From IMG/VR virus record IMGVR_UViG_2737471865_000007: a stretch of 13,979 bases of DNA; one strand, written 5' to 3'. Shown piece after piece: positions 1,448-6,932 of this stretch; the first letter of the stretch is position 1; each line of letters starts with the position of its first letter. The notes below the pieces were generated by a model. The model made no database searches, was not told the origin of the DNA, and saw nothing but the letters and a program-made list of their open reading frames with translations. Origin of the DNA: a virus (lineage: Duplodnaviria > Heunggongvirae > Uroviricota > Caudoviricetes). Both the position numbers and the translations under genes were made by a program.

Positions 1448-3568
1448 ATGGCAATGAAGGAAGTCGCCAAGCTAACAAACGTTATTTACTGGGACTCTGA
1501 TAAATCCTCCTGGCGAAAAGAAGTTAAACGGCTTGAGGATTATAAAAAATCCTGGAAGAAAGCTACCGACGATATAGCTAAAGCGGATTTTAAATCGAAT
1601 CAGGCTGTGCTCAGAACACAAAGAACACGCGCTAAGGTGGAAGAGCAGATTGCCAGAGCTCAGAGGAAACAACAGGAAGCACAGAAGAAACAACGTGCTC
1701 AGGCTGTCAGCCGTCTGACCGGGGGCAATAATCCGGAGCTCTCCTCTATGCGCAAGTTCTATCAGCAGCAAGCCAGAGAGGCCGCCAGACAACAAAAACT
1801 GTTAGATCGTAGTGTTGGAGATGTTCAGCACAGAAAAGCACGTGTAGGGGCCAACAGTGCACGAATCAGCAGCATGTTTGATGGCTCCCTGGTTGCTCAG
1901 TTCCAAAGCAGAATCCAGAGAGTTAATGCTGATTATGCTAAAGGGGCTATTAACCTGCAGACCTATAATCAGAAAATGGCTCGGCTCAGGGCTGAAATGA
2001 AGATGGCAACAGCTGAAGCCGGAAAATTCCAGAGCAGACTGGACAGAGTGAATGGCAACCTGGGGAAACTGAATTCCACACTAGGCAAGATAGCCATTGG
2101 CCTGACTGCCGCTGGCTGGGGTGTTCAGCGTGCTGTTAGTAGTGCTATGAGTGCTCAATCTGACCATAACTCAGCCTATTATGGTTTGCTTGCTCAGAAC
2201 AAGGATGATAAAGCCAAGACTGACCAGCAGATGGCTTTTATCGAGAACACAGCCAACACCTACGGTATGGATCAGCGTGAGATGGAGGGTGGCTATATGC
2301 GTTTTGCTGCCGCTACTCCCACCATGAAGGAATCTGATAAGCAGGCTCTCTTTGAGGCTATGGCTATTAAAGGCCGCTCAGTGGGTGCTACTGGCGAGCA
2401 ACAGAACAGGGCGCTTGTCGCTATTCAGCAAATGGCTGGAAAAAATCGCGTGATGGCAGAAGAGCTGCGGGGCCAGCTGTCAGAAGCCTTTGCAGGCTCT
2501 CAGCAGGACTTCCAACAGGCCGCTATTGATGCCGGAATCATCAAGAATGCCCAGGAATTCGATAAGGCCATGAAAGATGGCAAAATCACCCTGGACAAGC
2601 TACTTCCTTCTTTGGTGAAAATCTGGGGTGCTGCAAAAGAAACTGACGCTTTTGCGAAATCTATGCAACAGCCGGAAGTGGCATTGCAAAGAATGAGCAA
2701 CCAGTTTTTTAAACTAAAACAATCCTTTATGGGTGTTGTGGATCCTGCGGATGGCGTCATTACCCTGTCAGAATCCCTTATTTATATCTTTGAAGATTTA
2801 TCCTCAATTTTCAGTAGCTCAGGTGAAGATGCCAAATCTCTCGGAGTTATGTTAGGCGAGGCAATGCATGAAATTTATTTTTGGGTTAACTGGGCTTGGT
2901 GGTGGACTAAGAAGATCGCTAAAGGCATTGGTGAGACGTTAGGCTGGACCGCACAGGATGCAGGCGAGAAGATTGGCCAGGTTGTGACCGCCCTGTTAGG
3001 CCTGAAGGTTGCAACAAGCATTGCTGGCATGGTTGGCGGCCTTATTTCCATGCTGTGGAAACTTAAAGCGGCGCTTAGTGCTTTAGTCGGTGTTGGTGAT
3101 ATCAGCACTGGAGGCACAGCAGGTAAAGGCAGACCAGGTAGAGGCGGCTTTATCGGGAAAGCAGGCAGACTTGGAGGAAGATTTGCAGGTCCGGCAGGGA
3201 TTGTTTTGACAGGATTTGACATTGCAAATAGCTTAGATTCCTACTGGCAGAATCCTGATAATCAGCGGCAGGAAGGAGCTAAACATCCTGAATGGTTAAC
3301 CAGTATGGTTAATAGTGCTTCCAGCTTCCTCGGACTTGATTATCGTCTCGATGCAGGACGCTACATTACCAGACCAACACCAACGGGTGGTATTGCTATT
3401 CAGAATGGAGGCTATCAGCCGACTCAAATCAGTGTAGTTCCGCAGGGTGAGATTTCCGGCAAATGGGAGATAACTATTGATGAGGGGGGAATTGCCAGGG
3501 TGATTCAGAAGGAAGTCAGCGATCAGTTGGATTGGAAAGCCACACAGGAATCTAACCAGCTTTTCTAA
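1448..3568 (+). CDS. Phage tail tape-measure-domain protein (706 aa)
   Basis: N-terminal K/R/Q/E-rich coiled-coil region, central segment matching the tape-measure domain signature as I recall it (NRALVAIQQMAGKNRVMAEELRGQLSEAF), C-terminal glycine-rich hydrophobic segments; GAGG 6 nt upstream of ATG. Confidence 0.75.
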   Translation: MAMKEVAKLTNVIYWDSDKSSWRKEVKRLEDYKKSWKKATDDIAKADFKSNQAVLRTQRTRAKVEEQIARAQRKQQEAQKKQRAQAVSRLTGGNNPELSSMRKFYQQQAREAARQQKLLDRSVGDVQHRKARVGANSARISSMFDGSLVAQFQSRIQRVNADYAKGAINLQTYNQKMARLRAEMKMATAEAGKFQSRLDRVNGNLGKLNSTLGKIAIGLTAAGWGVQRAVSSAMSAQSDHNSAYYGLLAQNKDDKAKTDQQMAFIENTANTYGMDQREMEGGYMRFAAATPTMKESDKQALFEAMAIKGRSVGATGEQQNRALVAIQQMAGKNRVMAEELRGQLSEAFAGSQQDFQQAAIDAGIIKNAQEFDKAMKDGKITLDKLLPSLVKIWGAAKETDAFAKSMQQPEVALQRMSNQFFKLKQSFMGVVDPADGVITLSESLIYIFEDLSSIFSSSGEDAKSLGVMLGEAMHEIYFWVNWAWWWTKKIAKGIGETLGWTAQDAGEKIGQVVTALLGLKVATSIAGMVGGLISMLWKLKAALSALVGVGDISTGGTAGKGRPGRGGFIGKAGRLGGRFAGPAGIVLTGFDIANSLDSYWQNPDNQRQEGAKHPEWLTSMVNSASSFLGLDYRLDAGRYITRPTPTGGIAIQNGGYQPTQISVVPQGEISGKWEITIDEGGIARVIQKEVSDQLDWKATQESNQLF

Positions 3569-3675
3569 TGTCCACTCTGTGGATTTGAGTTCTACTCAAA
3601 CCTGCATAGCAGGCACTGATATTGTGATCAAAATCAATAAGTTAGCCTGACCGGATAAACTCCAGGCAAGAAAAA

Positions 3676-3701
3676 AGCCCCTAAGTGTTAACAAAGGGGC
3701 T
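3676..3701 (-). terminator. Intrinsic terminator for the leftward (minus-strand) operon
   Basis: 7-bp stem AGCCCCT/AGGGGCT (3676-3682 / 3695-3701) with 12-nt loop; on the minus strand the stem is followed by UUUUUCUU (plus 3675-3668). On the plus strand the downstream tract is not U-rich. Confidence 0.5.
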
Positions 3702-3731
3702 CTTCTCCGGTATCCTTTTGATGCGGGGCAA

Positions 3732-3779
3732 AACCTGCTAACAAAAATCAACCTCTCGCGAGACTAATGTTAGCAGGTT
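3732..3779. repeat. 12-bp perfect inverted repeat (AACCTGCTAACA / TGTTAGCAGGTT) flanking a 24-bp spacer that contains the palindrome TCTCGCGAGA
   Basis: Read directly from sequence; spacer carries a variant (TCAACCTCTCGCGAG) of the 15-nt motif found upstream of two genes at 8049 and 8568. Confidence 0.6.
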
Positions 3780-4120
3780 GCCGGAAGGTAAGTCAACTCC
3801 GGCCTATAAACCTTAAAGCGACTATAAAATCGCCCCGCCAATTGTGATGATCCGACCTTTGAGGCGGGTCCGGTGCCCAGGGGGTGCAGTGATGCACAAA
3901 CCAGGCAACGATAAACAGGCTAACAGTGATAGCGGCGCTCAATCAGCGCACTAAATCCTAACCAGTCCGGGAAAGAGGCTGGCTCTATCGACCGCTCATG
4001 CACGGGACAATGCATACCTGATAAAGGATTCTCACAAGGGACCAATCGCGAGAAAAGAAGTGGAAAGGGGCTGATTTGTGGTGTATCACTACGGCCTCAA
4101 AAGAACACTATTACCTTTTT

Positions 4121-4573
4121 TCAGCCTCTACCTACATTTGACCAATACTTGATTGCACCGATCAAATCATCATAGTGGCGCATTGCATCATTGAAGCCTT
4201 TATAGCTTGCCCATTGTGGTGAAACCTTGTTATTGCTGAATTGCCCACTAATCAGGATAGTCTCCAAAATGTCGGCATATCGCTTGCCAATTCGCTTTCT
4301 GACGGCCTCAGAGCTTCCACCCTTTACGATTGCATTAATCAGGGCTTTTGTGTGTCTCAGGCTCTCATAGAGCATTGCAGCGTGGGCAGATTCCATAAAG
4401 GAGCGCTTAGGCAAATCACCCCACCCCTCAGAGTGGATAGCCGCCAGTGTGGCGTAATTCAGGCCGCTATAGTGCTTTCCGTCATCCCAGCCAACCGCTA
4501 CACCTTCCATCTGTGAGAGCTCTTTATGCAGCTTATCCATCATGCGCTTGTCTATGGTGCAACGGACTTTCAT
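4121..4573 (-). CDS. Hypothetical protein (150 aa)
   Basis: ATG overlaps stop of upstream gene (ATGA overlap at 4573-4570), implying translational coupling; no assignable motif. Confidence 0.55.
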   Translation of the reverse strand: MKVRCTIDKRMMDKLHKELSQMEGVAVGWDDGKHYSGLNYATLAAIHSEGWGDLPKRSFMESAHAAMLYESLRHTKALINAIVKGGSSEAVRKRIGKRYADILETILISGQFSNNKVSPQWASYKGFNDAMRHYDDLIGAIKYWSNVGRG

Positions 4574-5834: not shown

Positions 5835-5890
5835 AAAAAAGGGAAGAGGGAAAGACCTATCCCCGATCTCTCACCTCTTCCCTTTGCTTT
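5835..5890 (-). terminator. Intrinsic terminator immediately after the major capsid gene (hairpin could act in both directions)
   Basis: 9-bp stem GGGAAGAGG/CCTCTTCCC (5841-5849 / 5874-5882) with 24-nt loop; on the minus strand it is followed by UUUUUU (plus 5840-5835); on the plus strand by TTTGCTTTT. Confidence 0.6.
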
Positions 5891-6921
5891 TATTTAGCCT
5901 TGGCAGCGGCGGCGGTGTTTTTAACACTCACTTTAACCACAACTTCAGGCATCATGTTCATGAAAGCATAAGAGGATTCAACGAAGATTTCGCGTTTGCC
6001 TCTGGACTCTTCCATATACATGAAAGCTTCACGTGCAGCGCCGTTTGCCAGCTTCAGGTTGCGAGCGCAAGGGCCGAAAAATTGAGTATAAACGCCCACC
6101 ATATCGCCTAACGCATGCGGCTGGAACTGTGGGACTAGATAAGCAGTATTCTCTGGCAGACTATCCATTTGCACCACACGCAGAGCTAAGCCCGGAATGC
6201 GGAAGGTCGGGAAGCCCGGCAGAATATCCTCGGGGAACATCAGACCTTTGTCGGTAATATTCTGATTGCCGAACAACAGCACTTTTCTCAACAGTTCATC
6301 AGTCTGAATTGCAGCAAAGAGTTCAGCACGGCAGAACAGGGTGAAACCACGCAGAGCGCGAACAACACCACGCTGTTTAACCTTGCTCAGTGCAACCAGG
6401 TCCTGCAGCTGTTTAAGGATATCTTTAGCTAAATCCACTTCGGAAGTAGTTTGTTGTGCGCCCAGCAGTTCGCACACATTCAGTTCTTTACCCTTGGTGA
6501 GGATAATTTTGTTCTCAAAGAGAGCAAGCTGGCGTGCTTCTTCGTGGGTCTGGCGTAAGCCTTCGCCCAGTTGAATAACACGACGAGCGGTTACAGACTC
6601 TAAATTCTCTTCGGAATCTTTGCCAGGAACACGAATACCCTGCCAGTCAGAAGGATAAATAGCACTTGATGCGGCAGTGAACGCCATATCACCCGTGCCC
6701 GTTTCACGCTCATCTGCGGTAATGGTCGCCATCTGTTCACCGTAGCGCGGATACTGACCGAAAGCGGTTTGTTTCACCTGGCGAACTTTGTCATATTCAA
6801 ATTTAAAGGTATTGCACAGAGCAGTAGTGTTGAAGATATCCATTGCTGAAATAATCTGGTTATCCAGCGGGATGTCTTTAATCAAGCCACACAGATCGCG
6901 GACTTCGAATTCTTTTTTCAT
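5890..6921 (-). CDS. Major capsid protein, lambda gpE-like family
   Basis: Segment ARRVIQLGEGLRQTHEEARQLALFENKIILTKGKE parallels the lambda E region RRRIIMQNMRDEELAIAQVEEMQAVSAVLKGK; length about 343 aa matches the family; ATG at 6921 preceded by AAGGAGG (complement of 6928-6934) with 6-nt spacer. The track's TTG start at 6927 is less likely. Confidence 0.8.
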   Translation of the reverse strand: MKKEFEVRDLCGLIKDIPLDNQIISAMDIFNTTALCNTFKFEYDKVRQVKQTAFGQYPRYGEQMATITADERETGTGDMAFTAASSAIYPSDWQGIRVPGKDSEENLESVTARRVIQLGEGLRQTHEEARQLALFENKIILTKGKELNVCELLGAQQTTSEVDLAKDILKQLQDLVALSKVKQRGVVRALRGFTLFCRAELFAAIQTDELLRKVLLFGNQNITDKGLMFPEDILPGFPTFRIPGLALRVVQMDSLPENTAYLVPQFQPHALGDMVGVYTQFFGPCARNLKLANGAAREAFMYMEESRGKREIFVESSYAFMNMMPEVVVKVSVKNTAAAAKAK

Positions 6922-6932
6922 CTCCAACCTCC

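Follow-up and report, generated by a model that had tools for sequence, protein, structure and literature searches.

A conserved structured plus-strand element, most likely an RNA, in satellite-like plasmids and tRNA-linked islands of Enterobacteriaceae

We analysed a stretch of viral DNA of 13,979 nucleotides (IMG/VR record IMGVR_UViG_2737471865_000007, Caudoviricetes), the whole of which is referred to here as the window, and in it the 552-bp spacer between the stop of the tape-measure gene (3568) and the stop of a convergent leftward gene for a protein of 150 amino acids (4121). The spacer contains a conserved non-coding element of about 490 bases, from approximately 3621 to 4115 or 4120, and we consider it quite probable that this element functions as a structured single strand with the sequence of the plus strand. 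Most likely this strand is an RNA molecule, and our overall interpretation, which we regard as probable, is that the RNA serves as a regulator or scaffold in the life cycle of the mobile elements that carry it; any one particular function that might be named for it is doubtful. The homology, fold, strand and genomic setting of the element are established by comparison of sequences, using its near-identity among plasmids, its homologues in several genera, covariation, and a match to a covariance model. It consists of a 5′ domain (about 3621–3840) and a 3′ domain of several helices (about 3861–4098), with long invariant stretches that are unpaired. It has the attributes of a structured non-coding RNA (ncRNA), namely a conserved fold, compensatory changes on one strand and no coding signal: the spacer has no open reading frame (ORF) longer than 51 amino acids and no conserved ORF, and in an ORF of 26 codons starting at 3767 the substitutions are all non-synonymous.

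The 3′ domain was examined in an alignment of 45 sequences made using MAFFT, which covers window positions 3835–4117. RNAalifold predicts 30 pairs from this alignment, 13 of which show compensatory changes. In the predicted helices 98.8% of cells are paired, compared to 31–45% when the partners are slid by one to three columns. The covariation score is 0.282, against no more than 0.065 in controls, and none of 500 shuffles attains the score of the real alignment. The domain (3861–4098) is closed by two long-range helices. P1 pairs 3861–3867 with 4092–4098, and reads GAGGC/GCCUC in the plasmids and AGCGC/GCGCU in the chromosomal copies; P2 pairs 3925–3929 with 4086–4090, and its pair 95:266 varies between AU (19 sequences), UA (16) and GC (seven). 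Within the domain, helix 2 is the hairpin GUGCA-GUGA-UGCAC (3884–3897), in which three of four pairs have changes on both sides. Its loop is GCGA at locus L010, and the GNRA form is thus retained on the plus strand. Helix 4 is a hairpin at 3962–3982, CCAGUCC-GGGAAAG-(A/G)GGCUGG, which includes a fixed U·G pair and is identical in all 45 sequences; we used it as the family signature in the search for homologues. Helix 5 is the hairpin P5 (4012–4032), with a conserved GAUAA loop and four pairs that have changes on both sides, among them pair 188:202, which is UA in 21 sequences and UG in 17.

The same data identify the strand. Among the predicted pairs, G·U cells number 85 and A·C cells only two, and 98.8% of cells are canonical when read on the plus strand versus 92.7% on the minus strand. 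A covariance model built from the chromosomal copies only gives a single match in the window, at 3949–4098 on the plus strand (26.9 bits, E 7e-6), all remaining matches on either strand having E values near 1 or worse. We therefore conclude that the conserved structure is on the plus strand. Two further hairpins were considered and rejected, since both are broken by natural variants: GCGA…UCGC at 3817–3832, and a second terminator-like hairpin on the minus strand at 4054–4029.

The 5′ domain contains the inverted repeat on which a preliminary description of this DNA was centred. Exactly as described there, two perfect 12-bp arms (AACCTGCTAACA at 3732–3743 and TGTTAGCAGGTT at 3768–3779) enclose 24 nt (3744–3767), and can form a hairpin, Hb, with a folding energy of -22.7 kcal/mol (z -5.7 taken alone). 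Three accompanying claims need qualification. The repeat had been called unlikely by chance in 14 kb. Perfect inverted repeats of at least 12 bp with a loop of up to 50 nt average only 0.06 per shuffle, but 5.7% of 300 dinucleotide shuffles have one, and the window has two (the other being at 5838/5874), so that by itself the repeat is only modestly unlikely. The palindromic core is present within the loop (TCTCGCGAGA, 3754–3763), but it lies 3 bp away from the centre of the repeat, and 10-bp palindromes are at chance frequency in the window (12 found, 13.7 expected). The GC content, described as rich, is raised only mildly, at 0.44–0.53. The spacer as a whole does fold better than its shuffles, with z-scores of -4.1 on the plus strand and -5.3 on the minus strand.

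We judge the repeat to be real because of the comparative data and not because of its rarity in a single sequence. A hairpin is found at the position of Hb across much of the family, its arms being CCUGU/ACAGG in 12 copies, CCUGC/GCAGG in 11 (the plasmids), CGUGU/ACACG in two, GCAGU/ACUGC in two and CAAG/CUUG in two; in the plasmids the arms are extended to 12 bp. The proposal in the preliminary description that the repeat could be the stem of a stable RNA therefore survives in part: the repeat forms one helix within a conserved structure that covaries and is kept in relatives, whereas the strand and the transcript model proposed there are not supported. A further hairpin immediately downstream, GCCGGA/UCCGGC (3780–3803), is specific to the plasmids and has no counterpart in the chromosomal copies.

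The covariation also bears on the possibility that the repeat is a site for a protein on double-stranded DNA, either an operator, a site of recombination, inversion or resolution, or a cos or pac site for the terminase of a helper phage. A perfect repeat that encloses a palindrome would suit such a site, serine and small tyrosine recombinases are encoded near many of the chromosomal copies, one plasmid record has been assembled as a trimer, and any satellite requires a packaging site. However, the arms differ between copies and remain complementary, which is the opposite of what is expected for a protein-binding repeat, and long-range helices whose strands are 230 nt apart covary as well. Among the plasmid proteins scanned none showed a recombinase domain, the sole hint of one being a weak HTH_7 match in a protein of 84–86 amino acids from relatives. 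Sites that resemble dif/cer were sought as 11-bp arms similar to GGTGCGCATAA and TTATGTTAAAT around a centre of 6–8 bp. The best in the window is not in the spacer but at 9968–9995 (AGTGTAGATAA-6-TTATGTTAAAT; four mismatches in 22, with an XerD arm of 11/11), within a second conserved non-coding block (about 9800–10200, 95.5–99.5% identical among plasmids), and this is likely to be the multimer-resolution site; the match nearest to the spacer has seven mismatches. Similarly, five iterons of about 21 bp (ACCTGTTGGAATTTCCCAC), which are absent from the spacer, occur at 10528–10715 in a non-coding block upstream of the genes for Rep/O-like proteins (11983–13419), and this block is likely to be the replication origin. 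As both features are located elsewhere, the spacer is needed for neither function. None of the 50,697 sequenced phages searched has a match to the plasmid-type or the chromosomal-type element, a comparison that a short site or an unsequenced helper would escape. The suggestion of a recombination, resolution or operator site is thus disfavoured, and we regard a double-stranded DNA site of any of these kinds as very improbable.

Upstream of Hb is the helix Ha (AGCCCCU/AGGGGCU, 3676–3701), whose stem also covaries and is ancestral to the family: it reads GCCCCU/AGGGGC in the window, GCCGCU/AGUGGC at locus L021 and GCCACU/AGUGG at L015. The first strand of Ha has an alternative partner further downstream, giving the long-range helix a:a′2 between 3677–3681 (GCCCC) and 3725–3729 (GGGGC), which is mutually exclusive with Ha. 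This helix has at least five fully compensated variants, including GCCGCUA/UAGCGGC, GCCGUUA/UAACGGC, GCCACUG/CAGUGGC and GCCGCUGUA/UACAGCGGC, and it is present in the minimum-free-energy fold of all 12 type-A chromosomal copies that were folded.

Ha had been interpreted in the preliminary description as a terminator of the leftward operon. Its shape on the minus strand is indeed that of a good rho-independent terminator (3701–3668: a stem of 14 bp followed by U6, with a terminator-like alignment), but the hairpin is an ancestral plus-strand helix, and the A6 run (3670–3675) that makes the minus strand read as a hairpin followed by U6 precedes it in the plasmid clade only. The minus strand of the plasmids does carry further signals. 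A candidate minus-strand unit (3666–3796) is predicted from a promoter-like pattern, TTGACT-18-TGnTAACAT over 3796–3767 (TTGACT at 3796–3791, TGCTAACAT at 3775–3767), with a start near 3760 and the terminator at about 3701–3668. The predicted RNA, of about 95 nt, would be complementary at its 5′ end to the leader regions of two plus-strand genes. These leaders share an invariant motif, AAAYTCAACTTCTCGCAAARGG, at 8046–8066 and 8565–8585, 14 nt before the ATG of, respectively, an ORF of 40 amino acids at 8075 and a variable gene at 8594. The motif is kept in the most divergent plasmid and also where the downstream gene differs, and it is probably a shared translational operator. The loop of Hb (UCAACCUCUCGC) is itself similar to it, the 12-mer at 3748–3759 being identical at 11 of 12 positions with an extension to 15 nt at one of the sites. 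When the element of each integrated relative is compared with the remainder of its island, 12-mer matches are not above chance, so that neither the leader similarity nor the minus-strand RNA finds support in these relatives.

A minus-strand product has to be weighed, either as the 3′ untranslated region of the leftward operon, as the preliminary description had proposed, or as the small RNA (sRNA) of about 95 nt, from 3760 to 3701–3668, pairing with the leaders of the genes at 8075 and 8594. The strong hairpin with U6, the promoter-like sequence, the complementarity of 12–15 nt to the invariant leader motif (AAAUCAACUUCUCGC) and the fold z-score of -5.3 on this strand are all in keeping with it. 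The traits of an Hfq-type sRNA (promoter, seed complementarity, and a terminator with a U-tail) can be read in the minus-strand sequence from about 3760 to 3668, but this region is invariant, so that comparison lends such an sRNA no support. Against this, the conserved structure is on the opposite strand, both by the ratio of G·U to A·C and by the covariance model, the A/T run of the terminator is confined to the plasmid clade, and the second terminator-like hairpin (4054–4029) does not withstand natural variation. A plasmid-specific sRNA that ends at the 3701–3668 terminator is possible, and may be a layer added in the plasmids, but it would leave the conservation across the family unexplained. 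We therefore consider a minus-strand product clearly unlikely as an account of the element, and the model of a minus-strand 3′ untranslated region in particular conflicts with the strand on which the structure is conserved.

The plus-strand element stands out among the plasmids by its conservation. Its core (about 3621–4115) is almost invariant, at 96–100% identity, although the tape-measure proteins of the same plasmids are only 72–84% identical. Between plasmids, the block 3801–4000 is 96–99.5% identical, compared to 67–95% for tape-measure DNA and as little as 82% for the major capsid protein (MCP). The core is conserved even where the gene for 150 amino acids has been exchanged for a variant of 139. 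The tape-measure stop is 2–55 nt upstream of the element, and in half of the plasmids it directly abuts ATATTGTGATC. Outside the core, the intervening sequence is a variable 51-bp cassette of three small plus-strand hairpins (3573–3623), which occurs as a presence/absence indel (A1, A2). At locus L011 the cassette is a variant with compensatory changes in its stems, and the same plasmids contain related copies at other places.

At the 5′ edge of the core is a putative IHF site on the plus strand, where AATCAATAAGTTA (3632–3644) matches the IHF consensus WATCAANNNNTTR perfectly. The consensus occurs five times in the window, against about 0.4 expected, and a second copy at 9345–9361 is identical to 3630–3646 at 16 of 17 positions. 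We note that the region around this second copy (9225–9361) contains four to five 11-bp repeats, CCTATTTAAYG, followed by a promoter-like TTGACA site and then by the second copy of AAAATCAATAAGTTAGC. In many chromosomal copies an IHF-type motif follows the end of the tRNA gene or attachment site, and the predicted site at 3632–3644 is probably what is left of an attP arm, or another site acting at the level of DNA. One might ask whether the whole element is an inert relic of such an arm, carried over when an integrative ancestor became a plasmid and conserved only through recent ancestry and recombination. The homology begins at the IHF-type site exactly where the chromosomal copies meet the tRNA or att end, and the plasmids are mosaics that have undergone frequent exchange. 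On the other hand, the element is the most consistently conserved block of plasmids whose neighbouring genes diverge, and its retention, accompanied by compensatory changes, extends over 19 clusters and no fewer than three att sites. An inert remnant is thus extremely improbable.

The cross-genus homologues were found by way of a 37-nt match to a Klebsiella plasmid, which shares CCTAACCAGTCCGGGAAAGRGGCTGGCTCT and flanking motifs with the window. A scan with a 23-nt pattern then gave eight loci in species-representative genomes (from Citrobacter, Pseudocitrobacter, Enterobacter, Kluyvera, Phytobacter and others), four loci in IMG/VR and 54 in metagenomes; the exact repeat and a 30-mer, when searched in IMG/VR, gave no match. 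In total there are 56 unique full-length copies, which form 19 clusters at 88% identity, and the identity between the plasmid clade and the remaining copies is only 40–49%. The element is confined so far to Enterobacteriaceae. An intact tRNA gene (Gly-CCC, Thr-CGU or Leu-CAA) is located immediately upstream and in the same orientation at 28 loci, which are all the loci with an intact tRNA detected, and several further loci have a partial tRNA (att) fragment at this position.

At three loci, att repeats bound islands that start with the element and have the integrase gene at the far end. These are of 13.9 kb (L025, 660–14540), 7.5 kb (L030, 6034–13582) and 6.6 kb (L066, 2132–8776). The int gene is transcribed away from att, so that excision and circularisation would place int and the element on either side of attP, pointing in opposite directions. 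The 13.9-kb island encodes a tape-measure protein and distant homologues of the MCP-like and Dit-like proteins of the plasmids, and the smaller islands contain only recombinases and variable cargo. The element is thus the constant feature by which a family of small mobile elements can be recognised, comprising tRNA-integrated islands of 6.6–14 kb in other Enterobacteriaceae and plasmids of 13–14.5 kb in E. coli and Shigella.

Partial copies of the element were also seen. A second fragment of its 3′ end occurs at about 3481 in L069, 1.7 kb downstream of the full copy, and other partial copies of the 3′ half (L039, L041, L043) are cut exactly at the 5′ strand of P2, which suggests recombination or exchange of cargo at the 3′ end of the element. 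Three more specific ideas were considered and rejected. A hammerhead ribozyme was suggested by CUGAUGA in chromosomal copies; there is no GAAA after the helix, the motif is missing from the plasmid copy, and Rfam is silent. An octamer of the type bound by the P4 alpha protein (TGTTCACC) occurs once, in the chromosomal type only, and is treated as chance. RNA-guided integration was dismissed, as inspection showed no complementarity of the variable loops to the ends of the tRNAs.

Several points weigh against a plus-strand RNA. The case for it is built wholly on comparative sequence analysis. Most of the compensatory pairs in the 3′ domain stem from one deep split between plasmid and chromosomal copies, although independent compensatory events occur also inside the chromosomal clade (pairs 95:266 and 188:202); the alignment includes seven near-identical plasmid rows, and covariation was counted on MAFFT alignments. 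The near-identity among plasmids could result in part from recombination and not from selection. The similarity of the Hb loop to the leaders is limited to the plasmids and is only moderately significant, and a promoter scan of the plasmid copy found no convincing promoter or terminator on the plus strand. Finally, covariation cannot tell an RNA from a folded single strand of DNA.

This last point leads to the possibility that the same fold works as single-stranded DNA, in a cis-acting site similar to oriT, a site of primosome assembly or a single-strand promoter, with IHF assisting in its assembly. The covariation and the strand asymmetry are equally compatible with a folded DNA strand, the perfect IHF consensus is at the edge of the core, no good promoter has been found, and the islands are tiny, some of them lacking transfer genes altogether, so that their mobilisation would require a site in cis. 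Nevertheless, no relaxase or rolling-circle Rep was found for the plasmids, which are typed as non-mobilizable in PLSDB. The branched architecture, the long invariant unpaired stretches and the GNRA loop are typical of RNAs; known single-stranded DNA promoters and ssi sites are single long hairpins. Co-transcription is suggested by the constant position of the element, directly after a tRNA gene that has the same orientation. We therefore regard folded DNA as an unlikely form of the element, and a plus-strand RNA as the more natural interpretation.

A plus-strand RNA would be made by read-through from the upstream gene, in the plasmid the tape-measure operon and in chromosomal copies the tRNA gene. 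Once folded, it might alternate between the exclusive helices a:a′1 and a:a′2, and it may act as a regulator or as a protein-binding scaffold in maintenance or in helper-dependent transfer. In the plasmids, the Hb loop copies the translation-initiation leader of two plasmid genes, which suggests titration: by mimicking these leaders the loop may sequester whatever binds to them. Extending this, we tentatively propose that the element represents a new class of large structured RNA, which would be a core module, acting in cis or in trans, of an undescribed satellite-like family in enterobacteria. Read-through from the tRNA gene would report integration, and a switch or ribonucleoprotein would control induction, copy number or the hijacking of a helper. 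This fuller scheme is speculative.

The plasmid family deserves a short description. The window is an entire circular E. coli plasmid of about 14 kb and belongs to a common family. It matches, end to end, circular plasmids of 13.3–13.7 kb from E. coli of cattle, humans, pigs and chickens, which were found in seven of the 5,426 complete genomes; among them the RefSeq record NZ_CP043822 is a trimer of 39.6 kb. More than 100 tape-measure variants are present on contigs of 13.2–14.5 kb from E. coli or Shigella. The products of the window plasmid include tape-measure, capsid-like, neck-like and Rep/O-like proteins and a Dit-like “tail tube initiator”, which is 45% identical to its counterpart in rV5-like Vequintavirus phages; no terminase or portal was seen, and there is no tRNA or tmRNA gene in the window. 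The family looks like a phage satellite that is maintained as a plasmid, and it is apparently undescribed: a literature search found no description of either the plasmids or the element.

The genes on either side of the element are the tape-measure gene (1448–3568, plus strand; Pfam TMP_3 and phrog_5255, E 1e-142) and the convergent gene for 150 amino acids (4121–4573, minus strand; phrog_222, E 1e-28), which resembles neck or tail-completion genes and terminates directly at the 3′ end of the element. No gene of the family varies more than the tape-measure gene, whose clades are at 97, 84 and 72% amino acid identity in plasmids that are otherwise alike, suggesting diversifying selection or exchange of modules. 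Homologues of the 150-residue protein are confined to the E. coli plasmid family, and an MCP query likewise retrieved this family only. Two further repeats were seen in the window. The other perfect inverted repeat of 12 bp (5838–5885), whose loop is again 24 nt long, is located just past the stop of the leftward capsid-like gene (5890–6927), in the gap before the next downstream gene, and looks like a terminator. A perfect 17-bp inverted repeat (TTCCTTAAACAAAAAAT, 11661–11677 and 13428–13444) flanks the 1.75-kb segment that carries the replication genes.

Few structured RNAs are both large and strongly conserved, and to meet a new one in the Enterobacteriaceae, which are the best-studied bacteria, would be unexpected. 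The mobile elements that it marks are very small. Some of them have genes for capsid-like, tape-measure and tail-tube-initiator proteins that are akin to genes of virulent rV5-like phages. The element therefore offers a handle on an apparently undescribed satellite family and on the regulation or mobilisation of minimal elements. The proposals made here can be tested by standard E. coli genetics, because complete plasmids of named strains are available in RefSeq. Should the element prove to be folded DNA, it would constitute a new cis-acting site of transfer or replication.

We then compared the element with known systems. An Rfam scan, which the preliminary description had recommended, matched no family: the whole window gave no match in Rfam 15 at gathering thresholds, the families covered including ROOL, GOLLD, HEARO, RNAI, tmRNA, RNase P, riboswitches and ribozymes. 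At E values of up to 10 there was only terminator-like noise, in which ctRNA_p42d scored highest with 23.6 bits, its gathering threshold being 50. The Klebsiella homologue gave nothing in Rfam.

Among single-stranded DNA sites, Frpo-type promoters, ssi/primosome sites and oriT hairpins share with the element strand-specific intrastrand pairing, a location in non-coding plasmid DNA and a nearby IHF site; they differ from it in that its fold is branched, its position is linked to tRNA genes, and no relaxase or conjugation context was found. The sib element of phage lambda is likewise a structured RNA element on the other side of attP from int, where integration alters the linkage to neighbouring transcription. 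The present element is ten times larger, and int is transcribed away from att in L066 and L030, so that it cannot be a 3′ retroregulator of int. The CI RNA of satellite P4 is also a regulatory RNA encoded by a satellite, and some relatives of the element are located at tRNA-Leu(CAA), the attachment site of P4. CI RNA is about 69 nt long and is processed from an operon leader; the element resembles it in neither sequence nor size, and no P4 genes were present among the island proteins scanned. The RNA II/RNA I pair of ColE1-type plasmids is comparable in that a structured plasmid RNA of about 500 nt would be accompanied by a possible antisense RNA of about 95 nt, which covers the 5′ domain and ends at an intrinsic terminator. 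Unlike that system, the element has no Rfam match to RNAI, the iterons and Rep-like genes are elsewhere, and the chromosomal relatives lack the terminator of the putative antisense RNA.

The closest resemblance is to ROOL and GOLLD, ncRNAs of phages and prophages that are often beside tRNA genes. Like them, the element has many helices and several hundred nucleotides, is borne by mobile elements, is adjacent to tRNA genes and has invariant unpaired stretches. It differs in having no Rfam match, in being smaller (about 450–500 nt), in its restriction so far to Enterobacteriaceae, and in its fixed location at the att-proximal edge of integrase islands or in satellite-like plasmids, with no copy in the 50,697 phages. 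We classify the element as a new family of a general type that is already known, the large ncRNAs such as ROOL and GOLLD.

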